Positions 43,854 to 64,000 of a DNA stretch of 64,000 nucleotides are shown in pieces. The notes under the pieces were generated by a model. The model made no database searches, was not told where the DNA came from, and saw nothing but the letters and a program-made list of their open reading frames with translations. The DNA comes from an uncultured Planctomycetota bacterium (GTDB lineage: Bacteria > Planctomycetota > Planctomycetia > Isosphaerales > Isosphaeraceae), in assembly GCA_963845755.1 (NCBI GenBank), contig CAWJTV010000028.1, positions 352,001 through 416,000 of the forward strand, written 5' to 3'. Positions within the stretch are counted from its first letter, which is position 1, and every line of letters starts with the position of its first letter. The position numbers and the translations under genes are program-made.

Positions 43854-44903
43854 ATGGGAGCTGACTCCATGATTCCTGCCATGCATCCCTCTCCATTCAC
43901 ATCACCGCCCACATCCGAATGCCTTGAAGAAGGGAAGCGATATCGAGGCCTTCCACGCGACGAGGTGGAACGGTTGGCCGCCCGGATCGCCGATGGTGAT
44001 CGCGAGGCTCGAAACCTCTTGGTCAAAGCGAATCTTGGTTTGGTGAGGCAGGTCGCACGCCGATATGTCGGCCGGGGCCTGGCGATCGATGATCTGGTGG
44101 GTGAAGGGAACCTCGGACTGATCCGTGCGGCCGAGGAGTTTGATCCGGGGGTTGGGGCGTCGTTCAGTACTTATGCCACCTACTGGATCAAGCAATCAAT
44201 CCTTTCGGCCGTGATGAATACGGCCGATACCATCCGTGTCCCAGCGCATGTCTTCCGCCTCCTGACGCGATGGAGGCGGACGGAGCAATCGCTGGGTCTC
44301 GCGAACGGCCGGCCGCCGAGCTACGAGGAGGTCGCATCCGAAATGGGATTGAACGACCATCAGAAGCTCCTCGTGATCAAGGCCCTCCACGCCAGGGATT
44401 TGCGATCGGAGAGCGTCCTGCCGGGCAACTCACGTCCCTGGTCGGCCGGGATGACGAGAGAGGGCCATGAGGGACCAGAAGACCTGCTCGAGGCCGATGA
44501 AGAACGGAATGGTCTGCACCAGCGGCTGCGCCGGCTCGACAGCCACGAACGCGCCGTGTTGATCCTGCGCTACGGCCTGGGCGACGATCGGCCGATGAAG
44601 CTCCACGAGGTCGGCCTTCGACTGGGACTGTCGAGGGAGTGGACGCGCAAGGTTGCCGACCAGGCACTCCGTAAGCTTATCGACAGCTTTGCCGCGAATC
44701 ACAACGGGATCGTCGGGGACGCGCAGAAACCCACCCGACGGCGGGGATCGAAAACCCTCAAGCGTCTGAAGGCCGCTCCCCGATCGGTGGCCGGCCACGA
44801 GACCACGGTCGAACCGACTTCTTCTGAAGGCAACCTGGGTCGCCTTTGTCCCGAGGCCCCTCCTACGGTCCAGGACAGCGCCGGCCTGGGACTCTGCGGC
44901 TGA
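43854..44903 (+). CDS. Sigma-70 family RNA polymerase sigma factor (RpoD/RpoS-like alternative)
   Basis: LVKANLGLVRQVARRY, DLVGEGNLGLIRAAEEFDP, FSTYATYWIKQSI, LRYGL...LHEVG..LGLSRE. Confidence 0.9.
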   Translation: MGADSMIPAMHPSPFTSPPTSECLEEGKRYRGLPRDEVERLAARIADGDREARNLLVKANLGLVRQVARRYVGRGLAIDDLVGEGNLGLIRAAEEFDPGVGASFSTYATYWIKQSILSAVMNTADTIRVPAHVFRLLTRWRRTEQSLGLANGRPPSYEEVASEMGLNDHQKLLVIKALHARDLRSESVLPGNSRPWSAGMTREGHEGPEDLLEADEERNGLHQRLRRLDSHERAVLILRYGLGDDRPMKLHEVGLRLGLSREWTRKVADQALRKLIDSFAANHNGIVGDAQKPTRRRGSKTLKRLKAAPRSVAGHETTVEPTSSEGNLGRLCPEAPPTVQDSAGLGLCG

Positions 44904-45535
44904 TCGCCGCTTCCCGCTGTCATCGCCCGTGAGAACAGCGCACGCCCTCTCGATGACACGACGGGGACCCGCGTCCGAATTCCATCCCTACGACTCGCAA
45001 AAACGTGATTAGCCTACCGAGGCCCTGAGTCATCTTGTTCCTCCATCACTGCCGATCGATCCTCCTTCCCCATAGCTCGATCTCGGCGACAAACCTACCT
45101 ACCGTCTTCCGTGGTCTCCGGGACATCCGGAAGTTGCTTGAACCTCCATCCTGGAGGCTCGAGCGGTTTTCGGAGCAGTTTCTGAATTTCTCGGCTCATG
45201 AGCCAAATTGAGTAACGACACGCGCCCGCAGATCCGTACAGTGGGTAAAAATCACGAGCCGGTCTGCGTTTATGGTGGGTTGAGCCCGGCTAGGACCAGA
45301 TGGTCATGCCTAATTTTGGACCATGAGCCAAACCTTGCCGTCGAGCCCAAGCGTCATATATTCTTTGGGTCAATGTTGAAGTCGGGCATGAATTAGGATT
45401 CGAGCCTCGATCACGGGCACGACTTGCGAAACCCGGAATAGTGGCTCTTTTCAACGAGCAGCGGTCCTCTCTGATCTTGCTATTGATTGCCGATTGGTTT
45501 AGCCTTTGTTTGAACACAAGCTGGATTGACTTTTT

Positions 45536-45799
45536 TCACTTACGAATCATTGCAATGGAGAGTGCAAGCACACTAGTAAACTCGAATGCAATCGACGCGA
45601 TTGGGGTGGATTCGTGTAGGTCCAAGTCCATCTGGAGAGCGTCCCCTTGTTTGGTGTTCGCGGTGTACGGCCTGTCCTGGAAGGAGGTTCTGAACCAACA
45701 CCACGATGTGGAGCGGTCTTTTGAACCCCCGAACGGGAGCCCACGTCGTGATCTTCCCAGTGAACCCGTGAAATCGTTTGTGTGCCGCTTCGCCTGCAT
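45536..45799 (-). CDS. Possible small hypothetical protein
   Basis: Strong SD gggagg upstream of ATG; hydrophobic C-terminus; no recognisable domain. Confidence 0.25.
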   Translation of the reverse strand: MQAKRHTNDFTGSLGRSRRGLPFGGSKDRSTSWCWFRTSFQDRPYTANTKQGDALQMDLDLHESTPIASIAFEFTSVLALSIAMIRK

Positions 45800-46248
45800 G
45801 TAATCGCCTCCCTGTCATTCTGACAGTATGGATCGAAGCAGGGCGGGAAACAACATACCGCTATATATAGCAAGATATAGTTAACATTCGGACAGCTCGG
45901 CCCATTCTGTGTCGAGACTGGAAACAGATCCTCCCCGGACAGCAATCATCCTTCGTATTCAACTCGTGAAACGAGGCCGTTGTGACCGTCACGCGCAGTG
46001 AATGGGGAGGCGTCCCGTCGCGGAGTTCAAACGGTGCGACCAAGGGCTCGGAGGCACTTACCAGGGATGACAATACGGCAGTGACCGAGTCCACGTGAGC
46101 TATCGATTGGGAGGTTCAAGCGTGCCTGTAGTCAAGAGTTTCGGAAACGATACGAGTGGAGGCATGGATTCCATCAGTCATTCTTCCAAATCCCAGAATA
46201 AAATAAGTGACATCAAGACCTGCTTGGGAGAGCGAGGTCGAAATCATC

Positions 46249-48461
46249 ATGGCGACGATTCTGGTTGTTGACGACCGGCCGGAGAATCGCGAATTACTCG
46301 TCGAGATCCTTGGCTTGTCGGGTTACGAGTTGCGCGAGGCGGCCGACTGCGCCGAGGCCCTGATGATCACGCGGCGCGACCGCCCCGACCTGGTGATCGC
46401 AGATATCCTCACACCGAGGATGGACGGCTACGATTTCGTGCGCGAGGTGAGAGCCGACCGCACGGTTGCCTCTACCCCTGTGATCTTCTACACGGCCATC
46501 TATCGCCAAAGCGAGGCACGACTCTTGTGCAGAAATGCGGAGTGACCCACTTGCTGGCGAAGCCGGTGGTTCTGGAGGAGGTCCTGCGGACGGTAGCCGA
46601 GGTTCTGGGCACGACCCGAAATGAGGAGACAGCCCCGACCGCCGGTGAGATCGAACGCGATCATGTGCGACTGCTCAACAACGCAATGTTGGAGAAGGTC
46701 CGTGAATTGGAGATGGCCAACCATCGCCTGACACGGCTCATCGATCTCGGGAGATCACTGGCCCTGGAGGGTGATCTTTGTCGGCTGCTGGACCGATATT
46801 GTCGGTCCGGGTGCGACATGATCGGAGCGCGCTATGCCGTTCTGGGTGTGCTGGAGGAAAATGGGGAGGGGTTTGACGACCTCATGACCCACGGATTCGA
46901 CTCCGAGTCGGCCATCCGGCTGGACGGCCCATCGCCCGGCGAAGGTCTGCTGCGCCGCGTCGTGGTCGGAGGAGTGCCCTTGCGTGCCGGCGTCGGTGTC
47001 CAGGACCGTGTGCCGTACTTCTTCCCGGGTCATCCCCTGGCCGGAGCCTTCCTCGGAGTGCCCGTGGCCACGCCAGGGCATCGATACGGGGTGCTCGCAT
47101 TCATCGATAAACTGGGCAACGACGAATTCGACGCCGACGATGAAGCGTTGGCCGTAAGTCTGGCGGCGCAGCTTGCCGTCGCGTACGAAGGCACGCGCCG
47201 TCAGACCGAACTCGCGCGGGGTGCCGCCCGCCTCGAACGTTATGAAGAACAGTTGGCCATCCTGCGACGGATCGATCAGGCGATCCTTTCGGCAAATCAG
47301 CCCCGAGAGCTCGCTTCCGCCGTGGTGCGCAATCTCCGCCAGCTCCTCGGCTGCTGGTCTGTCGGAGTCTGGGTCTTCGACTGGGAGACCCGGACGGCCG
47401 AGCGCCTGGCCTCGGAGGGTGCGACCGAGCTATTGCTGCCCCCGGGTACGAAGGTGCCCCTGGACGCACTCGATGTCCGAGACCTCGAGGCCCTCAGCGC
47501 GGGACAGGACCGGATTATCGAGGACGTCTCGCTCTTGCCCGAACCGGCTCAGACGATTCGGATGCTCCAGACGGCTGGGCTCCGGTCGTACACCCGGATT
47601 CCGCTAGCCCTCGAGAGCCAGGTGATCGGCACGCTCGTGCTGAGCTCGGACCAACCCGGTTCCCTCGATGCGGAACAGCTCGGGATCGCCCACCAGGTTG
47701 CCGATCACCTGGCGATCGCCATGCGCCACGCGCTGCTATTTCACCAGGTGCGTACGGGAGGCGAGCGGCTGCGCACCCTCTCGCACCAGTTGCTCAAGGC
47801 CCAGGAGGAGGAGCGCCGCCGCATCGCCCGCGAGTTGCACGACGAGATTGGACAGTCACTGACGGCCGTGAAGATCAACCTGCAAGGGGCGACGGGCGGC
47901 AAATCGGCAAGGTCATCCTCGAGCTATCTCCGCGAGAGTGTTGGGCTGATCGACGTGGTCCTGCGGCAGGTGCGCAACCTCTCGCTCGACCTGCGGCCTT
48001 CGGTGCTGGACGATCTGGGGTTGGCGGCCTCGGTGCGATCGCACCTGGACCGTACCTCGAGGCGCGCGGGATTCGTCGGGTCATTCGCGGCCGACCCTCC
48101 GGAGATCCGCCTGTTGCCCGAGATCGAGACCGAGTGCTTCCGCGTCGTCCAGGAAGCCCTGACGAACGTGGTGCGTCATGCCGGGGCACGACGGGTGGAA
48201 GTCACCTTGTTCCGGCGCGGCGACCTCCTGGAGCTGGTCGTCCAGGACGACGGGGCGGGATTCGACGTCGCCGCGGCACGGCGGCGCGCCGCCCGCGGCG
48301 GCAGCCTCGGGCTCCTCGGCATGCAGGAGCGGGCCGCCCTGCTCGGCGGCGCGATCACCATCGAAGCCGTCCCCGGCCGCGGCACCAAGGTCCACCTGCG
48401 CATCCCCCTGGCCGACCCGGGATCGTCGAGAGGCCCTGAAGGCGAAGAGGAACCCCGATGA
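46249..48461 (+). CDS. Hybrid sensor kinase: REC + 2 GAF + HisKA_3/HATPase (NarX/UhpB type); frameshift near 46530
   Basis: ILVVDD...DLVIADI; EEERRRIARELHDEIGQSLT; FRVVQEALTNVVRHA, DDGAGF, GLLGMQERA. Confidence 0.9.
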
Positions 48462-49111
48462 CCGCCATTCGCATCCTAATCGCCGACGACCATACGCTTC
48501 TCCGCGCCGGCCTTCGAGCCCTGCTCGAAAACATGCCCGGCGTCGAGGTCGTCGCGGAAGCCGGGAACGGCCGGGAAGCTCTGGCTGCGGTCGAGGCCCA
48601 TCGGCCAAGCGTCGTGCTGACCGACATCGCGATGGCCGAGATCAACGGCCTGGAGCTGGCCGAGCGGCTGGGCCGCGACTTCCCCGAGATCAAGACGATC
48701 ATCCTTTCCATGCACAACCAAGAGGAGTATGTCTGCCGCGCCATCCAGGCCGGCGCGGTCGGATACCTCGTGAAAGACTCCGGCACGGTCGAGTTGGGCC
48801 TGGCGATCCAGGCGGTCGCCCGCGGCGAATCCTATCTGAGCCCGTCGGTCTCCAAACACGTCATCGCCGACTACCTCCGCCGCACCGGCAGCGACCCGCA
48901 CGGCCATGGCCTCCTGACACCCCGCCAACGCGAGATCCTCCGGTTCATCGCCCTCGGTCAGAGCACCAAGGCCATCGCCCGAACCCTGGGCATCAGTGTC
49001 AAAACTGTCGAAACCCATCGCGCGCAGATCATGGATCGCCTCGACATCTACGACATCCCCGGGCTGGTCCGGTACGCCATCCGCAACGGCATGGCCGACC
49101 TCAACGCTTAG
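48458..49111 (+). CDS. NarL/FixJ (LuxR-HTH) response regulator
   Basis: ILIADDH, LTDIAM, LTPRQREIL...ISVKTVETHRAQIM; ATGA overlap with kinase. Confidence 0.95.
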   Translation: MTAIRILIADDHTLLRAGLRALLENMPGVEVVAEAGNGREALAAVEAHRPSVVLTDIAMAEINGLELAERLGRDFPEIKTIILSMHNQEEYVCRAIQAGAVGYLVKDSGTVELGLAIQAVARGESYLSPSVSKHVIADYLRRTGSDPHGHGLLTPRQREILRFIALGQSTKAIARTLGISVKTVETHRAQIMDRLDIYDIPGLVRYAIRNGMADLNA

Positions 49112-49143
49112 AGGAAAGCCGGCTCGAGATCGGGGATTTTCTG

Positions 49144-49711
49144 ATGCGTCCCTCAGAAAGCTCCCGAAGGACAGTCGCTGTTCAATTGGCGACAATCCTT
49201 CGTGGGCAAGAGCGACGAATCGACCGAATCATGCAGCGACTCGACCAGGGGCACCCGATGCTCGCCCGCGTGCCCTCACTCGGTCAAGATGAGCGGAAGA
49301 CTTCCCTCGGCGACGGAGTCGAAGGCATCGATGAAGAAATCCAACTCGCAACGCATGCGTACTGGCGGGAGCCCGTCTTCCCGTCGATGGTCTGAGTCGG
49401 CTGGCCGCGGGTTCTCGCGACCCGCGCCCTCCGGAAAGACGTCCGCCTGGCCCGGGCGCGGCACTAGAGGAGGGCTCGAACCGTTTGAAGACGAACCGGA
49501 CTGGATTCGCCGAGAGCTCCGTGCCCTGACTCTTGACTGCGATCGGGCAAGTTCCTATCTCGCGAAGCCCGGCTGCAACGTCGTGTTGGGGATGGCTCAG
49601 TTGGCGCGGACCATGTTCAAGCGCTCCTGGATTCTCCGTTTCCTCCGAGATGACCGATCTCCCTGCGATGGTCGTGCCAACCTGTCCGCCGAACTCCGCC
49701 GGCCGATCTGA
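49144..49711 (+). CDS. Hypothetical protein(s), probably one frameshifted gene
   Basis: Two consecutive coding-like segments in different frames (MRPSESS...ERRIDRIMQRL; ...DRASSYLAKPGCNVVLG...). Confidence 0.35.
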
Positions 49712-49842
49712 TCGTAAGGGAGGAAGCCGTGATCGCCCGAACCGAACCCCGGGCAACGACCAGCGAGGGTCCGCCCCTCGCCGCCGACAAGGACGTCGCA
49801 TGTCCCCATGGGTCATCGGCGACCTTCCCCCGAGGAGGGCTC

Positions 49843-50214
49843 ATGCGACCTTGTCGAATTCTCCTGGTCGATGAGCATCACTTACTCCTGGAAGTCCTCA
49901 ACCGGTTCCTCGCGGAGGTTCCCGGAATCGAGGTCGTCGCGTGCGCCAGCGACGGCCTCGAGGCGATGTCGTTAGCGGTCGCGCACCAGCCCGACCTCGT
50001 TGTCACCAACCTGGCCCTTCCCGGTCTCGGCGGCCTGGAGTTGACCCGCTCCCTGGCCGCGGGGCCACGTGCACCTCGCATCGTCCTGATGTCGTTCCAC
50101 GACGAGTCCGAATACCGCCTCGCGGCCGACGCAGCAGGTGCCGACGGATTCATCCTCAAGCAGGAACTGGGCACGAAGCTCGTACCGATGATCCAGTCAT
50201 TCATGGAAGAATGA
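49843..50214 (+). CDS. Stand-alone receiver-domain protein (phosphoacceptor Asp replaced by Asn)
   Basis: SD gaggag; ILLVDEHH...PDLVVTNLALPGLGGLE...GADGFILK. Confidence 0.82.
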   Translation: MRPCRILLVDEHHLLLEVLNRFLAEVPGIEVVACASDGLEAMSLAVAHQPDLVVTNLALPGLGGLELTRSLAAGPRAPRIVLMSFHDESEYRLAADAAGADGFILKQELGTKLVPMIQSFMEE

Positions 50215-50367
50215 AACGACTTGCAAGACCCAACGAATTCGCCATCCACGCCGGCGCGGGATGCGGGCTGCATGGCGAGCAATCGGCGGCGATCCCTCCT
50301 CCTGGGGTCGGCTCGGCCACTCTGGGAGTCCAACCCCTGCGGTCCACAGACCCGAGAGGAGGTGACG

Positions 50368-50796
50368 ATGTTAAGAAGCCAACGGAAGGAACAGCTCGGG
50401 ATCACGCCAACTCCTCCGATCACCGCCGAGGACGACAGTCCCGACCGTCGAACTCTGCTCTACCTGCTGAGTTTCGTGCTGGCGGGCGTCGAGGGGATCC
50501 GTTCGACGCAAATGACTCCCACGCCGACGCCGACTGAATGGCTCGAGCGCTGGGACGATGACGAATACACCTATCTTGAGGCGCGGATCCCCGGCGACGA
50601 TTCGGAACTGGAACTCGACCTGAACGTCGATAACGGAGTCATCTTCGCCCGAATTCGCCGTTCGACGCGCGGACTCGGTTGTCGAGGCCGGCCCAATCCA
50701 CCCCGAGCGCCCGGGGCGGGCGGGCGAGGTGCGTGCGTGACTTGGAGACTGGGGCCCGGAGCCGGGAGGCTGGCCGATTGCGTCGGCAGGGCATGA
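50368..50796 (+). CDS. Hypothetical protein with partial Hsp20/alpha-crystallin-like segment
   Basis: SD gaggaggtg; WDDDEYTYLEARIPG..SELELDLNVDNGVIFAR. Confidence 0.5.
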   Translation: MLRSQRKEQLGITPTPPITAEDDSPDRRTLLYLLSFVLAGVEGIRSTQMTPTPTPTEWLERWDDDEYTYLEARIPGDDSELELDLNVDNGVIFARIRRSTRGLGCRGRPNPPRAPGAGGRGACVTWRLGPGAGRLADCVGRA

Positions 50797-50847
50797 GCTT
50801 GGCCGCGGGGGCAAGGAAGCTCCCAGGCCGCCTCATCGCCCCCGGGC

Positions 50848-51357
50848 CTATTTCGCTGCAGTTACCCCGCCGGGCGCGCCCACCGAATCGTCCATCGGGT
50901 GTTCCCAGCGACAGATCATGTCGTAGTCTTCCAGGCGGAAGAACCAGACCGGGTTGCGGCCGAGAAGCGTGTAGCGGACCAGCGCGGGCGACTCCGCAGG
51001 CTCAAGATGCAAGCGAACTGTGAACTGGCGCGTGTTTTCGACATCCGACTGACCGAGAATCGCGAACGAGTTGAGCCGCTGATCGGGCCGCCGCTGTTTG
51101 TCCAGGAACTTCACCGAGCTTGAATCGAAGGAAGCCGGCAACGGCGACGGGGCGTCGCGCCGTGCTCGGGGCCGATTCCAACGCCTGACGCGCCTCGGTC
51201 CAACCTGGCAGGTATCCCGGCGGAGCCGGAGGTTTGTTCCACGCGTTGCAAGCGGACGTGCTGATGGCCCCCATCGCATAGAACGCCGGGTTGCCAAGCC
51301 CGCGAATCGGCATGAGGAACATCGAGGATTCGACGTCGGCGTCGTGAGGTTCTTCAT
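50848..51357 (-). CDS. Uncharacterised lipoprotein, paralogue 1 (divergent from Cu operon); two compensating frameshifts near 51280 and 51165
   Basis: Rebuilt ...ISTSAC...EARQALESA..WRDA...FLDKQRRPDQRLNSFAILG...RQFTVRLHLEP...YTLLGRNPVWFFRLEDYDMIC. Confidence 0.65.
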   Translation of the reverse strand: MKNLTTPTSNPRCSSCRFAGLATRRSMRWGPSARPLATRGTNLRLRRDTCQVGPRRVRRWNRPRARRDAPSPLPASFDSSSVKFLDKQRRPDQRLNSFAILGQSDVENTRQFTVRLHLEPAESPALVRYTLLGRNPVWFFRLEDYDMICRWEHPMDDSVGAPGGVTAAK

Positions 51358-51556
51358 GGCGAGGAGATCCGGTCATGCGTTGCCGAGATCGGGTCTCGGA
51401 GATTTTCCGCAAGGCTCCTTGCGATTCTGACCGAACTGGGCTAGATTTGGAAGATTGAGTGCTCCAAGTGGTTCCCAATCCAAGTCTGTATCGACTCCCT
51501 TTTCGCCGGTTGGATCCGGGACTCCACGTCCCGGATCGTTGGGACGATCCATCGCA

Positions 51557-51998
51557 ATGTTGCGCTTTCACGCTCGTCGATGGTCAGGCACCGCCGCCGC
51601 GGCATGTTTGATGCTCGCGACCCTGGCCGCGCTGTTACCAGCGGAAGCGCGCGGGCTGCGATCATCCATGGGTTAAGCGTACGGTCCTATCCGATACACT
51701 GAATGACCTGAGCGTCCTCGCGCCGGTCCGTCAAGGGTCAAGTTCCGATTCCGGTTTCCCCGACGAGCCCCGGCGCCGATCTCCATGCGCGGGGGGAATG
51801 TGTTCCCGATCGCCGGACATGCCGATGACCTCCCCGGACTCCACTCCGGACCGTGTCGAGCTATGGGGCAACCTGCCTGACAGTTTCCAGCCGAAGGCCC
51901 CTGCATTGACTGCGGCATGCCCCTTTCTGGATCGCCCGCGTCCGGCTAGGACGCTTCGACCTATCGAACGTCCTCCGCGCATGATCCCCCCCTTTTGA
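51557..51998 (+). CDS. Putative secreted leader/uORF (CutF/CruR-like): signal peptide, Cys motifs, C-terminal ERPPR; frameshift near 51650
   Basis: MLRFHARRW...LAALLPAEAR(A)G|CDHPW...PCAGGMCSRSP...PIERPPRMIPPF; joining needs one indel in a (gc)n run. Confidence 0.62.
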
Positions 51999-52334
51999 TT
52001 CCTCTCATCTCGTGGACTCAGCTGGTCGGATGACCAAGGGTCGGATTCTTGACTCGCGAGGAATGACACCCTCGACGAGTCGAAAGGCCCGGCGTGTCCA
52101 TGTCGCAACATTCCTGACGTCTTTATTCGACCGAATTCTCGGGGCGTGATGCGTCCACGGATCGACGATCGGTCGGTCCCCGACCGTGCCGACGCGCACG
52201 GATCCCGCCCTTGTACCCCGGACTGGTGAGTACGTTTCGTTTGTGATTCATCTCGTATCCCTGCGAGCTGGGGGATGAGCCCGGTCTGGTCATCATCGTT
52301 TTTTTCGATTCTTCGTGCTTGAAGAGGTGCATAA

Positions 52335-53370
52335 ATGAAAAAGTTTCGAAGCGGTTTCACGTTGATCGAACTACTCGTGGTCATCGCCATCATCGCCGTC
52401 CTGATCGCCCTCTTGTTGCCCGCGGTCCAGGCGGCTCGCGAGGCCGCGCGCGGGCGCAATGCAACAACAACCTCAAGCAGATCGGGCTGGCCTGCCACAA
52501 CTACTTGAGCTCTTTCCAGTGCCTGCCCTTCGGCAAGGGTGCGAGCTACACCAATGGGGCGCAATACTACGCTCGCTGGTCCACCCACAGTCAGCTCTTG
52601 ATGTACATCGAGCAAGGGACTCTCTTCAACAGCATCAACTTCAGCCTTGCGCCATCAACGCCGGGCATGGCCGGTGATGTCGCGTTCATGCCCCCGTACA
52701 CGCAGCCGGAGAACCTGACCAGTTCATTGACCCAGGTGTCCGCGTTCCTCTGCCCGACGGACGCGACCGCGCCGACTCCCGGCTGGCCGGGCTGCAATAA
52801 CTACCTCGGCAACATGCAGACCTGGGCCTGCGATCTGGGAGATAATAACCCCTCTCAGGTTTCCCCGGGCGATGCGCCCATGGGATCTTCTACTTCTGGA
52901 GCTCGGTGGGTCTCGCCAAGATCACGGATGGCACGAGCAACACGGCCTTCTTCAGCGAAAAACTGCGAGGCAACGGGACGCGAGACGGCGACGCCCGCTC
53001 CGACTCGCTGATCACGGCGGCGCCGACTAGCCTGAATGCTACCTTCCAGACGTGCACGAGCACGCCGCTGACCGCCTTGCGGCTCACTCACGCCCAGGGC
53101 GCAAGTTGGGTCATGGGCGAAATGTGCTGCACCCAGTATAACCACGTTTCCACTCCGAACACCAAGACCTGCGCCGGGCTGGGTTTTCTCAACAGCAACA
53201 TGGCCAACATGCCGATGCAGGTTCCCCCTTCGAGCAACCATCCGGGAGGCGTGAACGTCCTCTTTGGCGACGGAGGCGCACGCTTCGTCAAGACCAGCGT
53301 TTCGCTCGTGACCTGGCGCGCCTTGGGCACGCGGGACGGGAACGAGACCATTTCCTCAGATTCGTATTGA
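52335..53370 (+). CDS. DUF1559 protein, Met/Cys-rich; frameshifts near 52450 and 52885
   Basis: [51 protein letters not shown]...|ITDGTSNT...[12 protein letters not shown]. Confidence 0.9.
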
Positions 53371-53381
53371 CGGGGGCTACC

Positions 53382-53846
53382 ATGCGAATTCTCTGGAACG
53401 AGCCTCGGCCGGCGATTCTTGCGGCTCTGTCACTGCTCCTCCTCCTGGGAACGGGGGGATGCGGGACCGGCAAGAGCGAGGGTTTACCCTCGGACGATGT
53501 AGGACGCCGGGCGCTCGAGGCGGCGCTAAACGTCTGGCGCGAGGGCGGAAAGACCGGGCCCGTGGCGGGCATGGAGCCTCCAGTCGAGGTCCACGACACG
53601 CCCTGGAGCCTGGGCGACCGCCTGTCCTCGTACGAGATCGTTGGCGAGACTAAGAGCGCCGCGGAGATGAGGTTCACCGTCCGGCTCTCGCTCGCCAAAC
53701 CGGAGCGGGTGCAGGAGGTGCAGTATTACGTACTCGGCCGCGATCCGGTGATGGTCTTTCGCGATGAAGACTACCAGCGGAATATCAACATGGTAAACGG
53801 GCCGTCGGTCACCAAACCCGCGAAGTCGGGGAAGAGACGACGATAG
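53382..53846 (+). CDS. Uncharacterised lipoprotein, paralogue 2
   Basis: Lipobox TGGC; RRALEAALNVWR...GDRLSSYEIVG...RFTVRLSLAKPE...YYVLGRDPVMVFRDEDY. Confidence 0.75.
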   Translation: MRILWNEPRPAILAALSLLLLLGTGGCGTGKSEGLPSDDVGRRALEAALNVWREGGKTGPVAGMEPPVEVHDTPWSLGDRLSSYEIVGETKSAAEMRFTVRLSLAKPERVQEVQYYVLGRDPVMVFRDEDYQRNINMVNGPSVTKPAKSGKRRR

Positions 53847-54022
53847 CGCCCCCAGAGGGATCCGCACTCCTGGCACAGCCAGGGTCTTGTCCGCGTGGGG
53901 TGCGAAACCGCCGGACTAGCCACAGGCCGGGACAACTCTGTCACGCGCGATGCGATCGACCGGCGTGACACCACCGCTCGGCGCATCCGGAATGGCGACC
54001 CGGTTATCGAAGGGGACAACCC

Positions 54023-54551
54023 GTGAGACGGCATCCACCGACACCGCCAAGCACGAGCCTGATCATCGCAGCATTCGCGGCGATGATATGTCCGTCATGC
54101 GGCACGGTGGCTGCGCGAGAAGCCGCCGAGTTTGCTGCCCGACCCGCGGGTGGCCCGGCAAGCGGTCGAGAACGCCCTGGAGGAGTGGCGGGCCTCTCCC
54201 GATGTCGATACCACGGCCGCCGACCGATCCCTGATCTTCGTGGATCGTCAACGACGACCGGGTCAACGCTTACGGGAATTCGCAGTCCTGGGGGACTCGG
54301 TGGTCGACAACCTCCGGCGTTTCGTAGTGAGGCTGTCCCTCGCGGAACCTGAGGAATCGACGCTCGCCGCTTACTACGTTTTCGGCCGTGTGGGCAACGA
54401 CCCGATCTGGGTGTATCGTGCCGAGGAATTCGATATGATGATGAATATGGACATGGCGCCCGATGATCCGGCCCCGCCCGCGAACCCATCCAGGCCCCAG
54501 GGGTCGTCGAAACCCGAGGCGGGGCGCCACCATGAGAAGAAGGCATACTGA
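54023..54551 (+). CDS. Uncharacterised lipoprotein, paralogue 3, Met/His-rich tail; frameshift near 54103
   Basis: GTG with SD gaagggga; hydrophobic stretch + CPSC; ARQAVENALEEWR...RRPGQRLREFAVLG...RFVVRLSLAEPE...DPIWVYRAEEFDMMMNMDM...HHEKKAY. Confidence 0.72.
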
Positions 54552-54609
54552 CCGTGACGCGACGGGCGGTGGTCACCTTTCCGCACTTGCAACACGCCTG
54601 GGAAGGGGA

Positions 54610-56144
54610 ATGGTGAGGATAAGGTCGATGGCGGGCGGCTCCGTCGGACACTGGATCTGGTCGGCCTTGCGATTAGCCGAGGTCCGACTGCGCGTTCCGA
54701 TCGTGCTGGTCGTGGCCGCGGTGGTGATCGGCCGATGGGAGGTTATCCGCAACTACTGGGACCGTTTCACGCGATCCTCGACGGCCCAGAACACCTTCAA
54801 GCTCCCGATCTCGAGCGACACGGAATACTTCTGCCCGATGGATCCCGGGGTCGTGTCGCACGGTCCCGCGCGTTGCGGCGTTTGCAACATGGCGTTGGTC
54901 CGCCGCAAGCGCGGTGATGCGGTAATGCTGCCCGATGGGGTCGTCGCCCGGATGCAGCTATCGCCGTACCGGATCCAGCTCGCCGGCATCCAGACTGCTC
55001 CGTTGGGCTATCTCCCCCTGAACCGGGAGTGGTCCGCCGCGGGGTTGGTCACCCGCGAGGCCGATGACTCGGTAACCATCACGATGGATGTGCCCGGTCG
55101 TCAGGCGCCTTGGGTCGAGGAAGGTCAACGGGTCGACATCGCGTGTGCCGACCTCCCCGGCCAATGGCCGCTCACGGGCAGGATCCGATCGCTGCCGCGC
55201 CGCGTGGTTCAAGGGCGGGAATTTGCTCGTGTGACCGTCGCGATCGAGAAACCGCCGCAAACGCTCCGGGGCGGCATGATCGCGGTCGTGACATTCCGGA
55301 TCGCCATGGCCGCGCTGGATCCGTTCCGCACGATGCCGAGCGGCCCGCCCGCCCGGAAGCGCGGGGAGCCGGGCGCATCTACCTCTGTCACGATCACCCG
55401 GAGACGATCGCCCTCGAGGCGGGACGCTGCCCGATCGACGGCAAGAACCGCATGCCGCAGACGTTGGGTGAACTGGAGCGGGTGCAATGGTGGTGTCCGA
55501 TGCATCCGGAGGTCACCGCCGAGAATGCAGGCGCCGTTTGCGAACCATGCGGCGGGATGGTCTTGAAACCCAAGGTGGTCTTCTTCGCACCCAAGGGCCA
55601 GGTGCTGGCCCTGCAACAGTCGGCGGTAGTCGACACCGGCGTGCGGAAAGTGGTCTTCGTCGAGACGATGCCCGGTATGTTTGACGCAGTGGAGGTGGTC
55701 CTAGGACCGCGTTGCGGCGACTTCTACCCGGTCGTGCGTGGCATCGAGCCGGGCCAAGAGGTCGCGGTCGCCGGCGCCTTCCTGCTCGACGCCGAGACCC
55801 GGCTGAATCCTAGCTTGGCCGCCGGCTACTTCGGTGCAGGCCGTGGCGATCGTGCGGCCCACGGGGCGGCACCGGCGACCACTACGAGGCGATCTTCCCC
55901 CGCTGACGGCCCATCCAACGCATCCGGCGATCCCTTCTGGGGACTGGATCCTGCGGATCGTACCCTGGCCCAAGGTCAGTCAAACTGCCCCGTCACGGGT
56001 CGGCCGCTGGGCTCGATGGGCACTCCCAAACGTTACGTCGTTTCCGGCCGGGTGGTATTCCTTTGCTGTGCGGGGTGCGAATCCCGGCTCCTTCGGGAGC
56101 CGGCGAAATACCTGGCAAAGCTGCCCGCCCCGGGTCGCCCATGA
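54610..56144 (+). CDS. CusB-like RND periplasmic adaptor with three heavy-metal-binding modules and C-terminal YHS-like domain; frameshift near 55372
   Basis: YFCPMDP..CGVCNM; LSPYRIQLAGIQTAP; YLCHDHP..CPIDG; WWCPMHP..CEPCGGM; SAVVDTG.RKVVFV...GAFLLDAETRL; CPVTG.PLGSMG...FLCCAGC. Confidence 0.85.
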
Positions 56145-59100
56145 TTGACGCGGTCATCACGTTCTCGATCCGGCATCGGGCGGCTGTCATCGCAGCCAGC
56201 CTGCTCCTGGCCGCGCTGGGCGGCTGGGCCGTGTGGGATACTCCGGTGGACGCGATCCCGGATCTCTCGGAGAACCAGGTGATCGTCTTCACGGAGTGGA
56301 ACGGGCATGGTCCGCGCGAGATCGAGGACCAGGTGACGTATCCGCTGACTCTCGGCCTGCGCGGGATCCGGGGCGTCCGGGTCGTCCGGTCGTCGAGCGA
56401 CGTCGGCTTCTCGACGATCAGCGTCATCTTCGAAGACGCGATCCCGGTCGCCGAGGCGCGACGGCGGGTAACCGAGCGATTGGCACAGGTCCAGGGGAAG
56501 TTGCCGGCCGGGATTCTATCCGAGATCGCACCGGACTCTCCTGCAACCGGCCAGATCTTCTGGTACACGGTGGAGGGGGGCAAGCTCGACCTGGGCCGGC
56601 TTCGCGCGATCCAGGATTGGTATGTCCGCCCGCAGCTCGGCTCCGTGCCCGGCGTGGCGGACGTATCCAGCGTGGGTGGTTTCCCGATCGAGTATGAAGT
56701 GGCGCCGGACCCCGACCGGCTCCGGCTCTTCGGCGTGACGCTCCAGGAAGTCCTCGACGCCGTGTCCTCGTCGAACGCCGCGACGGGCGGCCAGGTGGTC
56801 AACAAGGGGAATGCGGAGTACGTGGTGCGCGGTGTCGGCTGGCTGGGGGCCTCTCCCAATCCCGGCGACGATTCGTTCGACCCTCGGCGGCGCGATCCGC
56901 GACCTGGAAAACGTCGTCCTCCGCGCACCGGGCGGAGGAACGATCCGGCTGGCGGACGTCGCGACGGTGGCGATCGTCCCCGGCTTCCGTCGCGGTGCCC
57001 TGGAGAAAGACGGCAGCGAGGCCGTCGGCGGCGTGATCCTGATGGCGCACGGCGAGAACCCGCTCGAGGTCACGCGCCGGATCAAGACGAAGATCCGCGA
57101 GCTCCAGATCGGCCTGCCGCGCGATGTCCGGATCGTGCCCTTCTACGACCGCACCCCGCTGATCGAAGGGGCCATCAGCACCGTCAGCGGCACCGTGCTG
57201 GAAGCAATGGTCTCGGCCTCGTTGTGCGTCCTGGTGATCTTGCTCCATGTGCGCACCTCGCTCGTCATCGTCGGCACGCTGCCACTGGCCGCGCTGTCGT
57301 CGTTCCTGATCATGGGCGTCTTGCGACGGTCGGGCGTCGTGGACATCGCGGCCAACGCCATGTCGCTGGCGGGGATCGCGATCTCGATCGGCGTGCTGGT
57401 CGACTCGTCGGTCGTGATGGCCGAGAACGTCATGCACCGGCTCAAGGAGCGCTTCGGCCCGGAACCGGTGCGCGGCGACGTTCGCGAAGTGGTCTTGCCG
57501 GCCTGCCTGGCCGTCGGTCAACCCATCGTCTTCTCGGTGGCGATCATGGTGCTGTCGTTCCTCCCCGTCTTCGCACTGGGAGGTATTGAAGGCAAGATGT
57601 TCCATCCCCTGGCCTATACCAAGACATTCGCGCTGGCATCGGTCGCGGTGCTCGCGGTGACCCTGGTCCCGGCTCTGTGTACGCTCTTCATCCGAGGCCG
57701 ACTGCGGTCGGAGCGGGAGAATCCGCTGGTCCGCGGCGTGATCGAGGTCTATCGCCCGGTCCTCTCTTTCTTGATGGATCGCCCGGCGGTGCTGGCCGGG
57801 ATTCTGGGGATAACCTTCCTCCTGGGATTCGCCCCATTGGGCAGCCGAACGATCTTCCTCGGTACGCTCGTCGTGGCGATGGTGGCGATGGCGGTCTGCG
57901 CGTCGAGCCGTTGGGGTGCGGTCCTGGGTCCCGCGTTTCTGGTACTGGTCGCACTGCTGATCGAACCAAGGATCACGCCTCTGATACGCGAATTCATGAC
58001 GCCGCTCGACGAGGGAATGGTGATGGACATGCCCATCACGGTCCCGCGGGCCTCGGTATCGGAGTCGGTCGACGACCTGAAGGCGCGCGACATGGTCTTG
58101 TGCCGGTTCCCGGAGGTGGACATGGTCGTGGGCAAGGCGGGGCGGGCCGAGACGCCGACCGACCCCGCGCCGATGGACATGATCGAGACCATGGTGAATC
58201 TCCGGCCGCGCGAGTTCTGGCCGCGCCGTAAGCTCCGCGCATCCGATGCCTCCGCCCATTGCCTTGCGGTGCTCGATGCCTTGATCGCACGCCAGGTCGT
58301 CGCGCCGCCGGTTGACGCGCAGGCGCGCCGATCCCTCATCGAAGAGGCCGTCGCGCCGGCCTTGACGCAGTTCGACGCGATGTGCCGGGAGTATGCCTAT
58401 CACCGCAATCAGGAATTGGTGCGCGAGTCGAGCGGCCTCTCTCCGACCTCGACGCACCCCTCGGATCCCGCCGAGCAGCGGCTGGTCGATCCCTGGCGCC
58501 GGCATGTGGAGAAACTCGATGACGAACTGCTAATGCGCGCCGCCCCGCTCTTCACGCGGCTGGTGATGGACCAACTCCTGGAGCGTGCGACGATCATCGA
58601 CCCGGCCGTGGCGGCGCATCACGCAAACGCGGTCCGCCTCCGTGCGGCGTCGGTCGAGGCCGCCATCTCGGCCATGACGAGGCGTCCATCCGCCATCGCT
58701 GGGCACCACCACCATTCCGGCGGATATGCCTCGATCCCCCTGCTGGAGCCGCAGCCACAACTCGACGTCGTCCAGGAGGAGCTCTCCCGCCAGTTCAGCC
58801 GATGGTTGCTCTTGTGGCAGGTGGATCGGGACGAGTTGACGCGGTTCGGCGGCGAGCTGGACAATGCCGTCCCGATGCCGGGCTGGACGAACGTCTGGAC
58901 GATGCCGATCCAGAACCGAGTCAACATGCTGACAACCGGCGTGAATTCGCCGATTGGCATCCGGGTCCTCGGACGCAACCTCGAAGACGTCGTCCGCGGC
59001 TCGGAGGAGGTTGCGCGGGTCGTGAAGGGCATTCCTGGGGCCGTTGACGTCGTGGCCGACCCGATCCGCGGCAAGCCTTACATCGAAATCCGGCTCGACC

Positions 59101-60325: not shown

Positions 60326-60694
60326 ATGAGACGGTTTCTCCGCGTACTCCTCGTCGCCGGCCTGCTGGTCGGCGGCCTGATGTTCGGGACGAGCCCCGCC
60401 CAAGGCGGTCCCTTTCGCCGCGGCTGGGGCCCCTTTGGCGGGTTCGGGCGTTATCGCGTCTATCGACCGGCCTGGGGTTATGGGTATGGTGGCTATCGTC
60501 CCTACGGCTATCGTTACGGCTGGGGAGGATACGGGCTAGGGTATCCGGCCTATAGCTACGGTTATGGCTATCCCGGTTACTACAATCCCTACTTCGGCGG
60601 GATGGGAATGGGATATCCGGGCTACTACGGTACCTCGGTATCGATCGGCGGTCCCTATGGTGGCGGGCTGTATGTCGGCTCCTACCCGTACTGA
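60326..60694 (+). CDS. Small secreted Gly/Tyr-rich protein
   Basis: Signal peptide ending PAQG; GYGY/YPGY low-complexity body. Confidence 0.75.
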   Translation: MRRFLRVLLVAGLLVGGLMFGTSPAQGGPFRRGWGPFGGFGRYRVYRPAWGYGYGGYRPYGYRYGWGGYGLGYPAYSYGYGYPGYYNPYFGGMGMGYPGYYGTSVSIGGPYGGGLYVGSYPY

Positions 60695-60796: not shown

Positions 60797-63700
60797 TCAC
60801 GGCTCGTTGAGAGCCTTGGCAACCACCGTCGCGATCGTGTTGGCGTGGACATACACCGCTTCCAGCTTGCCAGCCGGACCGATCAGGAAGACCGAAGGGA
60901 TCACTTGAACGTGATAAGCATCCTGAGCGCCTCCCTCAGGCCAGTCACCCAGGAAACCTTGTGTCCATCGGAGTCCTTGCTCAGCGGCGACGTTGCGTGA
61001 TGCCTCCTTGTCGCCGTCGAGACTCAGGCTCACCATCGCGAATCGTTCGTCCGCGCCGAAGCGGTCATGAACGGCCTTGAGCTCGGGCAACTCAGCGATG
61101 CACGGCGCACACCAGCTCGCCCAGAAGATGAGCAACACGTGCTTGCCCCGATAATCCTGGAGCTTGATCCGACGACCATCGAGCGACGCGGCCTTAAACG
61201 GTGGTGCCAGCTCTCCGATCTTGAGCATCCGCCTCGGCCTGGGCCGCAGTATGCCGAGATCGAATGGCTGGCCACTCGCTGCGCCGGGGACCTCGGGAAT
61301 GCGGAACTGGCGGAACGCGTGGGCGGTTCGTTCGGGAGACCGGACGCGCATAGAGATCGGGTCAGTCGTGTAGGTCAGTGTCAATTGGTAGTCTCCGGGT
61401 GGAAGGTCCTCAACCCGAACGGTTCCGTCCGATTGGAGCGGAGCCCACTGAAGCTGGAACCAATCCCGGCGATATGCCCGTCCCTCGGGGGAGGCCCGCC
61501 ATTTTCTGGCCCACTCGATCATCGACCCATCGCGGCGGGCGAGGAGCTCTTGGGGATAGGGGATCATTGGTCGATCGCTCCCGATATTGAACGCGGAAAA
61601 CGACGTATAGTCGGCATTCGGATCGAAGCCGAGAGGCGGCGCGATCCTGGCCACCAAGGCGCGACCTGATCCACCCATCTTGACCTGGGCCACTTCTCCG
61701 GACTTGACCTCGACGAGCGTTCCGTTCGTTGATGCCTGAAGGCCTGACGCCCGCCTCTCGTATTGAAACGCAACCCGCACGTCTCCCGGGATGACGCGAT
61801 CGAAGATGAAGCGGCCTCGTGCATCGGCTTTCGTCCTGCCTGAAGCCAAGACATAGGGTATGTCGCGATTGGCGATGCGATCGGAACCATAGCGGATCTC
61901 GGCACCCGATGCCGGCTTGGCCCCCGTGCGGGCGAACCCTTCGAGACGACCCCACGGACCGGCGGTGATCGTAGAATTCTTCTCGAGGGCCGCTCGATCG
62001 ACCTCGGCATAGAACTCGGGATGGACGACGATCACGGCCCACGCTTTCCCGGCGGGGCCGGGCTCGCGGAGGCTCCGGAAGCGTCCCTGAGCATCGGTCT
62101 TCACAATGGCCTGGTCCTCCACGGGTCGAATCTGACCATCCTCGATATGAACCCTGGGCAGGGGGGATGGACCCGCAATCATCGGATAGGTCACGACGAC
62201 TTCCGCCCCTTCCAGGGGCGTGGCGTCGGGTCGGTGCACGATGCCCGTGACCAAGACGCCTTGCGGCTTCTCGGCCTTCGTCAGCTTGACGTCATATTCC
62301 ACCTGCCCCTCATCGCTCTGGAAGACGCGCGACTCGAACGGTTCGTACCCCTTCGCCTTGATCCGGAGCCGGAACTGGTTCGCCTTCTCGGTGTCGAGCG
62401 AGGCTTGCAGGTATCCCTGGTCCACAAAGCTGCGCGAATTAGCATTCCACGACACTTTGCCGGTATCGCCTTTCACGATGCCAACCTCGAGCTCAGCCTT
62501 ATCGATGGGATTGTCGGTAACGGCGTCGCGGACATGACCGCTGATCGACAGCTCGCGCCTGAGCGTCAGCACGATCTCACCGGAATCGGGCGTGGCCCTC
62601 TGCTGGAAGACATCCGAATAACCGGTGCGACTGGCATCGACGAGAACGGGATCCGCCGGAGCATCCTCCCACCGAAACCGGCCGTCGGACCTGGACTTGA
62701 GGAACACCCTCGGAAATCGGCGGCCGCGCCAGGTGTCGATGTGGACGAAAGCGTCGGGGATCGGTCGATTCTGCGTATCCACCACCCGGCCCGCGAGGAC
62801 ATGCGGAGGTCCCAGTGTCACGACGACCGGCTCGACCCGGTCCGTGGCTGCAACCGGCTTCATCTCCGGCGCGTGGCCCCGGGCCTTGACTCGAAGCATC
62901 ATCCGTTTCGGACGAACGTGCGGAAATCGGAACTGCCCCTGAGCATCGGTGATCGACAAGGGCGCATCGTCGTAGGGGCCCGGGTCGCTCGCTTCAAAGC
63001 AGATGACCTCGGCGCCCGCGATCGGCTTGCCCGCCTGGTCCGAGACTGTACCGGCGATCGCGACCCCCCGGATCATGACCTGGCGATCCGTGAAATCGCG
63101 CAACGCCTGCATCGGCTGTTCGTCCGGCTTGGGTGGATTCGATGGCCTCGGCTGGCCGTGCTTCCGCGGATAGGAGTCCCCATCCGCGACATAATCCGGG
63201 TGCGAGAGGAAGAGGTAGGCGAACGTCATGTTGCGGAAGGAGCGGCCACGCCACCGGCCTTGCTGGTCGGTCTGAGCGTCCACCATCCAGGCCAGCTCAT
63301 GTTTCTCCTTCTTCTCGCCGAGGTAGCCCGAGATCCGAACCTTCACTCCCGCCATCGGATGTCCCTGTTCATCAACGACCGTGCCACCCAGTGTTTGCTC
63401 GCTGGGCAATAACTCGACCGTGAACTCCCCGGGGATCTTCGCAAATCGCGGATTGTTCTGGGCAAATGAGTGGCGCTGCTGGACGTAGCCCTCGGCCCAG
63501 ACGTCGAGATTCAGCGTGTCCTGAAACGAGTCGTGGGACAGATTGATGCGGATCCGGCCGTCGCGGTCCGTTTTCCACTCCGGATGCACGAGATCCCGCG
63601 TGGAACGGACCGTCGCCGAGGCCAGCGGCTTGCCAGTGTCCTTGCCAACGACGATGACCTCGATCGCCCCTTGGGGTGCGTTGACCACGGTCTTCGCCTT

Positions 63701-64000
63701 CTCATCCGGCGTGGCCTGAGTTGTCTCCGGCGGCACAATGGCCTTCGTCGCCGCGCGGGCCAGCTCGATCGAGCCGAGCAACCCGGTGATGGCCAGGAGA
63801 ACCGCGGCGACCGCCAGTCTCTCCGGCCACGGCAGCAGGCATCGCGACGATCCCCGGCTCTCCTCGATCCACGCCAGCCGCCGGCCGAGCTTCGTGATGT
63901 GCGCCATTGCCAGTCCAAGACCCGGTTCGGGTCGCCGGACCAATCCCGAGGCGACCGCGATCAATGACGCTCGGTACGCAGAAGCCCCTCCCATTGCAAA
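60797..64000 (-). CDS. BlaR1/M56-type protein with carboxypeptidase-regulatory-like repeats and C-terminal TlpA redoxin; starts beyond window end
   Basis: AYRASLIAVA...LAMAH.TKLGRRLAWI (end of M56); repeated G.V.D..G.PIAGA.V...TDAQGRF; LLIFWASWCAPC. Confidence 0.82.
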   Translation of the reverse strand, partial: FAMGGASAYRASLIAVASGLVRRPEPGLGLAMAHITKLGRRLAWIEESRGSSRCLLPWPERLAVAAVLLAITGLLGSIELARAATKAIVPPETTQATPDEKAKTVVNAPQGAIEVIVVGKDTGKPLASATVRSTRDLVHPEWKTDRDGRIRINLSHDSFQDTLNLDVWAEGYVQQRHSFAQNNPRFAKIPGEFTVELLPSEQTLGGTVVDEQGHPMAGVKVRISGYLGEKKEKHELAWMVDAQTDQQGRWRGRSFRNMTFAYLFLSHPDYVADGDSYPRKHGQPRPSNPPKPDEQPMQALRDFTDRQVMIRGVAIAGTVSDQAGKPIAGAEVICFEASDPGPYDDAPLSITDAQGQFRFPHVRPKRMMLRVKARGHAPEMKPVAATDRVEPVVVTLGPPHVLAGRVVDTQNRPIPDAFVHIDTWRGRRFPRVFLKSRSDGRFRWEDAPADPVLVDASRTGYSDVFQQRATPDSGEIVLTLRRELSISGHVRDAVTDNPIDKAELEVGIVKGDTGKVSWNANSRSFVDQGYLQASLDTEKANQFRLRIKAKGYEPFESRVFQSDEGQVEYDVKLTKAEKPQGVLVTGIVHRPDATPLEGAEVVVTYPMIAGPSPLPRVHIEDGQIRPVEDQAIVKTDAQGRFRSLREPGPAGKAWAVIVVHPEFYAEVDRAALEKNSTITAGPWGRLEGFARTGAKPASGAEIRYGSDRIANRDIPYVLASGRTKADARGRFIFDRVIPGDVRVAFQYERRASGLQASTNGTLVEVKSGEVAQVKMGGSGRALVARIAPPLGFDPNADYTSFSAFNIGSDRPMIPYPQELLARRDGSMIEWARKWRASPEGRAYRRDWFQLQWAPLQSDGTVRVEDLPPGDYQLTLTYTTDPISMRVRSPERTAHAFRQFRIPEVPGAASGQPFDLGILRPRPRRMLKIGELAPPFKAASLDGRRIKLQDYRGKHVLLIFWASWCAPCIAELPELKAVHDRFGADERFAMVSLSLDGDKEASRNVAAEQGLRWTQGFLGDWPEGGAQDAYHVQVIPSVFLIGPAGKLEAVYVHANTIATVVAKALNEP

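Follow-up and report, generated by a model that had tools for sequence, protein, structure and literature searches.

Background

The adaptors of RND systems have four core domains, and in the available sections of the sources consulted BesA, from which only the alpha-hairpin is missing, is the known exception (PMC8277102, PMC4446572, PMC3807786). According to the accessible parts of two of these sources, the lipoyl domains stand off the transporter and the beta-barrel domain and the membrane-proximal one contact it (PMC8277102, PMC4446572). BesA of Borrelia has no hairpin, yet its pump works with an OMF whose gene, besC, belongs to the same operon; the lipoyl domain is kept and was proposed by the authors to contact the OMF (PMC3807786, sections available). 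For E. coli CusA, the available text states that mutation of D405, E939 or K984 abolishes transport and that the protein is able to take metal from the cytosol (PMC8092243).

Two leader peptides are also relevant here. CruR heads copper-repressed import operons, in which a long intergenic region follows it. A fixed spacing from the cysteines to the arrest motif is its hallmark (CxxC, 45 residues, RAPP); copper relieves the stalling and the operon is shut off (PMC9426467, parts available). In CutF, by the accessible portion of its description, copper induces stalling and switches the detoxifying gene cutO on (bioRxiv 10.1101/2025.02.05.636593). Planctomycetes, as described in the available extracts of PMC8567305, have an invaginated inner membrane and an enlarged periplasm that a tripartite bridge often could not span, and their DUF1559 family is heavily expanded, with 41 or more genes per genome.

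The window analysed here is a stretch of 64,000 nucleotides on contig C28 of a planctomycete genome of 14.3 Mb and 64% GC. It holds a cassette with a short CusB-like adaptor and a CusA-type transporter (Table 1). Compared with the HME4 RND pumps CusCFBA of E. coli and SilCBA of Cupriavidus, the Met triad, D405 and K984 are common to all, and the membrane-proximal and barrel domains of the adaptor match those of CusB, SilB and ZneB. Unlike in these pumps, the adaptor has no lipoyl and hairpin domains and no OMF gene lies nearby, and the cassette CusA is without E939 and K678, has its transmembrane Met pairs replaced, and carries a longer TM7 region and a 200-aa insertion. The short CusBA resembles a CusBA subcomplex without CusC; it has no four-domain adaptor, no tripartite locus and no canonical CusA proton triad. 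The metal site of CusB is a Met site, and the cassette adaptor has Cys/His HMBD modules instead. With BesA of Borrelia burgdorferi BesABC it shares the absence of the alpha-hairpin, whereas BesA keeps its lipoyl domain, has a co-transcribed OMF and works in drug efflux, and the cassette adaptor has lost the lipoyl domain, carries metal modules and has no adjacent OMF. In the literature covered, outside which most subscription papers fall, we found no description of this short-adaptor system.

Table 1 Features of the cassette in the window. Columns Start and End denote positions in the window. A single position locates one residue. CusA residues were mapped to E. coli numbering.
Feature	Start	End	Strand	Remarks
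Third predicted lipoprotein, type B, divergent	50848	51319	-	WEHPM tail; frameshift near 51160; approximate start
CruR/CutF-like leader ORF	51557	51998	+	Frameshift near 51650; signal-like N-terminus, AxC, PCxxxxC, C-terminal ERPPR at fixed spacing
DUF1559 prepilin-type protein	52335	53370	+	Met-rich orthologous group; two frameshifts; approximate start
Small predicted lipoprotein, type A	53382	53846	+	After DUF1559; NM tail
Small predicted lipoprotein, type B	54011	54551	+	Met-rich tail; frameshift near 54110; approximate start
Short CusB-like adaptor	54610	56144	+	About 510 aa, read through a one-base assembly frameshift near 55370
Predicted inner-membrane anchor	54691	54738	+	Hydrophobic N-terminal helix, from sequence; helix 22-52 of model
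HMBD 1 (PF19335)	54823	54900	+	Present in the long paralogue and in every short-form protein read
Junction of barrel strand 1 and strand 2 via a short turn	55024	55095	+	Alignment, model, spanning short-read contig
HMBD 2 and 3 (CxxH...C; CPMH...CxxC)	55380	55559	+	Between barrel and second half of membrane-proximal domain
Membrane-proximal domain, C-terminal half	55602	55811	+	Matches SilB 5a4g (E 4.8e-13), ZneB, CusB
C-terminal Cys module CPVTG...CCxGC	55986	56120	+	Conserved; YHS-like by eye only
CusA-type RND transporter	56144	60146	+	Frameshift near 56880
CusA D405	57402		+	Kept
CusA Met triad	58029, 58179, 58926		+
CusA insertion between M623 and M672	58224	58845	+	About 200 aa
CusA Asn replacing K678	58944		+
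CusA Ser replacing E939	59778		+
CusA K984	59904		+	Kept
CusA extra Glu at position 988	59916		+

Results and discussion

Domain structure of the short adaptor

From its N-terminus the adaptor consists of a membrane anchor, an HMBD, the membrane-proximal domain, the beta-barrel, two further HMBDs and the CPVT/CCxGC module. The first-pass annotation had proposed that the lipoyl and alpha-hairpin domains are absent, with the motif REWSAAG running into TITMDVP and then LTGRI. The motifs are where it had placed them (RMQLSPYR 54949-54972, REWSAAG 55024-55044, TITMDVP 55075-55095, LTGRI 55171-55185), barrel strand 2 (55075) being reached not more than about 10 residues past barrel strand 1 (55024), and the absence of both domains was borne out by profile, alignment and model. 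The Pfam profile HlyD_D23 matches the adaptor at positions 143-214 of 214 only and leaves 1-142 unmatched; in two intact homologues 147-214 are matched, and in the full-length paralogue of the same genome, on contig C43, 2-214. Pairwise alignment with this paralogue gives a single gap of 141 residues at the junction, and about 141-145 of the paralogue's residues, comprising lipoyl and hairpin domains, are absent from the short adaptor.

The search for relatives was limited to a protein length of 448-2000 residues and gave 578 of them at E 0.001. Of the 578, the best 120 span 81-99% of the query at a length of 454-534 aa, bar one fusion of 916 aa. The short junction was common to all 12 homologues that we aligned by eye. 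We used AlphaFold2 on one homologue, P0003 (75% identical), with 119 rows from which the 916-aa fusion was excluded (pLDDT 81.7, pTM 0.59). In residues 66-411 the model has no helix of at least 4 residues; it contains no lipoyl domain and no alpha-hairpin, and strand 149-160 turns straight into strand 166-173. Residues 148-243 form a six-stranded beta-barrel that superposes on EmrA with Z 12.2 (rmsd 2.3, 90 aligned) and on ZneB with Z 11.2 (rmsd 2.7, 92 aligned), and the superposition skips the lipoyl and hairpin parts of EmrA and ZneB. Barrel and membrane-proximal domain together match BesA with Z 12.5 (rmsd 5.0, 176 aligned) and CusB with Z 10.9; BesA, tied with EmrA, is the top structural match of the model. 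That the membrane-proximal domain is present is also seen from the profile of positions 342-413, the matches of which are given in Table 1. The membrane-proximal domain and the barrel are exactly what the adaptor retains, in addition to its Cys/His metal modules, which are predicted to face the periplasm.

Extra metal-binding modules had also been pointed out in the first-pass annotation, and three HMBDs are indeed found in P0003. As marks of the short form they fare less well. The N-terminal HMBD and the CPVT/CC module are present in the full-length paralogue too, and the two internal HMBDs are absent from several short-form members of other families, so the HMBDs do not define the short form. 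No YHS match was returned by the Pfam scan for the C-terminal module. When the adaptor was predicted in complex with the type B lipoprotein, the score was 0.01, which counts neither for nor against contact.

An assembly artefact as the cause of the domain loss was considered and ruled out. The short-read checks of the adaptor are single contigs of run X1 at a depth of about 2.5-2.7. One of them, of 302 bases, spans the junction (54914-55215) with no gap and 2 other letters; given this contig and the short junction shared by the aligned homologues, the deletion is real. The other (one contig, depth 2.7) has one extra base behind 55370, and the adaptor frameshift is therefore an assembly error, which disposes of a pseudogene as well. 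At least 7 apparent single-base frameshifts lie in six adjoining genes (window 51500-57000). The X1 contigs cover the adaptor frameshift only, and those in the leader, DUF1559, lipoprotein and cusA genes were assumed to be errors since the relatives are intact. A promoter and terminator scan gave results at chance level only.

The partner CusA

For an intact partner taken from a relative, the match to E. coli CusA has E 2e-199, and the CusA partner passes TIGR00914 with 865 bits against a cut-off of 701. The Cu(I)/Ag(I) triad is kept wherever covered in the own family (M573 40/40, M623 40/40, M672 38/38), and so is E625 (40/40); R83, E567, D617, R669, D405 and K984 are present in every covered own-family locus, and K482 and T987 are likewise kept in short-form CusAs. 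By automatic mapping, other residues occupy triad positions in 2 of the 13 covered other-family loci. Both docking subdomains, DN and DC, are intact.

The comparison of the two forms took in 66 loci of the short and 23 of the long form, after six loci from an additional set had been dropped as duplicate, partial or poorly aligned. All 61 covered short forms have Ser, Ala or Gly at position 939 and none has Glu, compared to Glu in 23 of 23 long forms. The proton relay D405-E939-K984 is incomplete in short-form CusAs, in which D405 and K984 are kept and E939 is gone. Position 678 is Asn in 58 of 62 short forms and Arg in 21 of 23 long forms; K678 is reportedly required in CusA, being so named in the title of Su et al. 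2012. Both short and long planctomycete CusAs have the extra Glu988, one turn from K984, and Asp/Glu residues in TM12. With these acidic residues found in both forms, the missing E939 may be made up for, its loss tells little on direction or coupling, and the proton path may have been rewired and not lost.

The Met pairs in the transmembrane part of E. coli CusA are largely replaced in short and long forms alike, at 403 (Leu in 63/64 covered loci), 501 (Cys in 57/64), 1009 (Val in 61/61) and mostly 486; M391 and M410 are mostly kept in planctomycete CusAs. This speaks against metal being taken from the cytosol along the E. coli route. The TM7 region (57774-57969) is about 45 residues longer than in E. 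coli CusA and reads as three hydrophobic helices. As for the insertion of about 200 aa, a replacement hairpin acquired along with the loss is out of the question, since an insertion is found at this site in long-form CusAs too; an ESM Atlas search with the insertion gave scores under 0.9 only. At E345, a second glutamate of TM2, Ala or Gly is found in 65 of 65 short forms, and Glu is kept in 22 of 23 long forms. We gave this change no weight because, judged by motif only, the position is seemingly not the E346 site of AcrB (PMC4359379, accessible part).

OMF genes and the conserved cassette

In order to count neighbours, we used profiles built here, the OMF profile being derived from 34 of the 39 OEP matches of this genome, none of which lies on the contig of the window. 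The own-family set consists of 41 short-form loci, namely the window gene and 40 others picked from the listed matches for their long contigs, with a stretch of about 20 kb read for each. The other-family set has 14 short-form loci (up to 19 kb read, some contigs being short), and 21 loci of long-form paralogues were used as control. An OEP match was found within about 10 kb in 1 of the 41 own-family and none of the 14 other-family loci (1/55), compared to 16 of the 21 long-form loci. In the sole short-form case (L081) the OMF gene precedes and belongs to a second RND operon. The deletion shared by the homologues is thus accompanied by the absence of a neighbouring OMF gene, and the match between the two that the first-pass annotation had drawn holds at the level of these loci.

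Other genes recur. DUF1559 is nearby in 38/41 own-family and 10/14 other-family loci (48/55) and in 5/21 long-form loci, with 3 own-family loci having none in the stretch read. The lipoprotein (38/41 and 14/14, or 52/55) and the leader (29/41 and 5/14, or 34/55) are each found at 0/21 long-form loci. A CusA match occurs in 40 of the 41 own-family and all 14 other-family loci; in two of the 41, the relatives L065 and L093, it is some 7 kb downstream of the short adaptor, and for L089 the DNA read contains no cusA. As a rule the leader comes first and is followed by DUF1559, lipoprotein A, adaptor and cusA; lipoprotein B is placed upstream, divergently or behind cusA. Some genera have DUF1559 and lipoprotein A in divergent orientation, with lipoprotein B still in front of the adaptor.

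Further genes of the window flank the cassette. Upstream (43854-50800) there are a sigma-factor-like ORF and a GAF histidine kinase, along with two response regulators and two small ORFs; only about five close relatives have kept these genes. Directly behind cusA a small secreted Gly/Tyr-rich protein is encoded (60326-60694), and the minus strand at 60797-64000 encodes a large protein in which five carboxypeptidase-regulatory-like repeats are combined with an AhpC/TSA redoxin domain at the C-terminus.

Leader, DUF1559 protein and lipoproteins

The leader resembles CruR and CutF (DUF2946) in being the first gene and in having a signal-like N-terminus, a semi-conserved Cys, a Cys pair whose distance from the C-terminal Arg-Pro-Pro motif is fixed, and a long intergenic region behind it. 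It differs from CruR in having CxxxxC rather than CxxC, about 55 rather than 45 residues, RPPR rather than RAPP, and no Pfam DUF2946 match: at E 0.5, none of 4 leaders matched any Pfam family, PF11162/DUF2946 included. CxxxxC is found in all 67 rows fitting the pattern, and the distance to the terminal (R/H)PPR is 53-56 residues in 65 of these 67; 5 more rows are off pattern, and many rows are duplicates from one and the same locus. The leader stop lies at a median of 354 nt ahead of the first DUF1559 profile position. In the next 100 nt after the leader, C exceeds G in 23 of 34 leaders, compared to about half in three control sets, a weak bias among related loci.

The DUF1559 protein has a prepilin cleavage motif and an H-X9-DG end. 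Its Met content has a median of 4.1% in operon members (39 proteins) and 2.0% in the 73 other DUF1559 proteins of the genome. The lipoproteins belong to no Pfam or NCBIfam family, and type B tails carry His/Met motifs such as HWEHKM. An AlphaFold model of the lipoprotein (pLDDT 87.8) gave NTF2/cystatin-like matches at Z 7.0 or less, and Foldseek found no match to the fold at E 0.001. We dropped the attempt to derive a function from this fold, the NTF2/cystatin-like matches being the only ones, at low Z, and the arrangement being common. The commonest source of look-alikes in the ESM Atlas was Planctomycetota.

In this genome 6 ORFs match the leader profile, and four of the 6 lie on contig C41, where leader-DUF1559-lipoprotein modules occur without any RND gene. 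At about 609000-631000 of C41 (L231, L232) there are several leaders, four DUF1559 genes (one with 7.6% Met) and lipoproteins of the same family, together with genes that by eye resemble AhpD-type and EF-hand/redoxin genes. This cluster is possibly a second metal-regulated module.

Distribution and descent

A second CusBA copy is carried by many planctomycetes; its adaptor is without lipoyl and hairpin, and a channel gene almost never adjoins this copy. A junction profile of 129 positions matched in one piece in 43 of 73 own-family genomes, with a 44th genome matched in two pieces, and in 14 of 327 other-family genomes of the class sample. Named relatives of the short adaptor gene belong to Isosphaeraceae, Pirellulales, Gemmataceae and Planctomycetaceae, which suggests that the host, too, is a planctomycete, probably of the Isosphaeraceae. 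Aquisphaera insulae, Paludisphaera soli and Tundrisphaera lichenicola are cultured relatives with the cassette. Among the 150 matches listed from a phylum-wide search of 401 genomes, the window's own alone covers the profile at comparable length. A search of representatives with the junction profile gave 1765 hits, listed without taxonomy.

We used IQ-TREE on the partner CusAs, with 28 rows picked from 76. The partners of short adaptors form one clade (SH-aLRT 99) and the long-form paralogues adjoin it (96), with a long-branch warning for the outgroups. FastTree on all 76 CusA rows gave the same split, with a support of 0.65 for the short clade. The domain loss looks like one old event following duplication, judged from these trees. 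Because all short forms are one clade and one evolutionary event, the locus counts are not independent tests.

The long-form CusBA on C43 represents this sister clade. It shares with the short form the anchor, the HMBD, the CPVT/CC module, the CusA insertion site, Glu988 and the acidic TM12. Long forms differ in that they keep lipoyl and hairpin domains in 21 of 21 loci, E939, a basic residue or Gln at 678 and mostly a nearby OMF, and have no lipoprotein or leader alongside. In this genome the full-length system (C43 74089-82811, L001) consists of a divergent OMF gene, an adaptor with lipoyl and hairpin domains, and cusA; the CPVT/CC module of its adaptor lies between the barrel and the membrane-proximal domain and not at the end.

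Interpretation

The cassette is probably an OMF-independent periplasmic Cu(I) relay at the inner membrane rather than a pump expelling metal, and we hold this reading with moderate confidence. The adaptor would still sit on CusA, since the domains retained are those that contact CusA in known pumps. Periplasmic Cu(I) would be picked up by the tethered modules of the adaptor, both HMBD and C-terminal Cys, and loaded onto the triad of CusA. At the uncapped funnel of CusA the ion would be passed to the type B lipoprotein with its His/Met tail, from which it may pass to the pair of DUF1559 protein and type A lipoprotein, and the leader would tie expression to copper via ribosome stalling. This is the simplest reading because it accounts for the domains retained and lost, the missing OMF gene, the altered exit and proton residues, the sister pump, the Met/His-rich partners and the copper-type leader. 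Ordinary efflux is already covered, since a complete long-form system with an OMF is encoded in the same genome. The leader-DUF1559-lipoprotein module may be merely co-regulated with CusBA, because the modules on C41 lack an RND gene. The first-pass annotation had suggested that the adaptor cannot form a tripartite pump and may act as a tethered metal relay. The second part is also the best reading here, and it gains support from the changes in the partner CusA and the conserved cassette of Met/His-rich periplasmic proteins. The first part can only be inferred, and it is weakened by the precedent of BesA (PMC3807786, as far as available) and by the 39 OEP matches elsewhere in the genome. These matches, together with the intact DN and DC docking subdomains, also speak against the relay itself.

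Of the two directions that a relay may take, we moderately favour the forward one, towards the lipoproteins and DUF1559 protein, over the reverse. The reverse, copper acquisition, we consider unlikely, and it takes its share from within our confidence in the relay as a whole. Here the leader would turn the cassette on when copper is scarce, the DUF1559 protein and lipoproteins would scavenge Cu(I), and CusA would pass it through the adaptor modules to cuproproteins. CruR, which in the accessible part of PMC9426467 heads copper-repressed import operons with a long intergenic region behind it, the median of 354 nt between the leader stop and the first DUF1559 profile position, the excess of C over G in the 100 nt after the leader, and the change of two residues needed for export in CusA all point this way. 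Set against them, the bias towards C is weak and comes from loci that are related; CutF, which belongs to this same family of leaders, turns a detoxifying gene on in copper (bioRxiv 10.1101/2025.02.05.636593, portion available); the transmembrane Met pairs are mostly replaced in both forms, which makes cytoplasmic entry by the E. coli route unlikely; and no TonB-dependent receptor family is among the recurring neighbours.

Outside the relay, a Cu/Ag efflux pump that is still tripartite, its OMF being borrowed from elsewhere in the genome and docked directly on the CusA funnel as proposed for BesABC, is rather unlikely. In its favour, DN/DC, the Met triad, D405, K482, T987 and K984 are kept, and the genome has its 39 OEP matches. 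The hairpin-less BesA pump works, and BesA is the top structural match, tied with EmrA; the same source, as far as available, has BesA keeping its lipoyl domain and besC its place in the operon, and the short form has neither (PMC3807786). Moreover, the sister long form kept hairpin, lipoyl domain, E939 and mostly an adjacent OMF, all of which the short clade lost, and the CusA insertion is no replacement hairpin gained with the loss. A two-component pump by which Cu(I) is simply shifted out of the cytoplasm or membrane to the enlarged periplasm, where the neighbours would buffer it with no specific hand-over, appears improbable. It would suit a periplasm that a tripartite bridge is often too short to span (PMC8567305, in extract) and the ability of E. 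coli CusA to draw metal from the cytosol (PMC8092243, in part), but the Met pairs of that cytosolic route are replaced and the metal modules of the adaptor are predicted to be periplasmic. We give still less credence to a non-transporting copper sensor or scaffold, in which the triad would bind Cu(I) and the adaptor or the pilin-like protein would read the conformational change. The clade-wide change of two E. coli export residues with the binding triad kept would fit a sensor; however, D405, K482, T987, K984, R83, E567, D617, E625 and R669 are kept too, and no signalling gene recurs across loci, the response regulators being found in about 5 close relatives only.

Conclusions

A more specific form of the relay, which we put forward tentatively and think less probable than the relay in general, is an RND metal pump repurposed as a copper-loading station, in which the short adaptor and a rewired CusA would send Cu(I) via dedicated lipoproteins to a Met-rich DUF1559 pilin-like protein under the control of a new type of copper-sensing arrest peptide. 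If true, the acceptor of this RND system would be a protein of the periplasm and not an outer-membrane channel, and the finding would give a first concrete function to one of the many DUF1559 proteins of planctomycetes. An adaptor cut to its two transporter-binding domains, found across several planctomycete families beside a full-length sister, tests the role of the adaptor apart from OMF bridging, and with a CusA that has neither E939 nor K678 the proton and metal paths now accepted are put to the test. In addition, the cassette offers a testable handle on the DUF1559 family and on what may be a new class of metal-sensing leader peptide.
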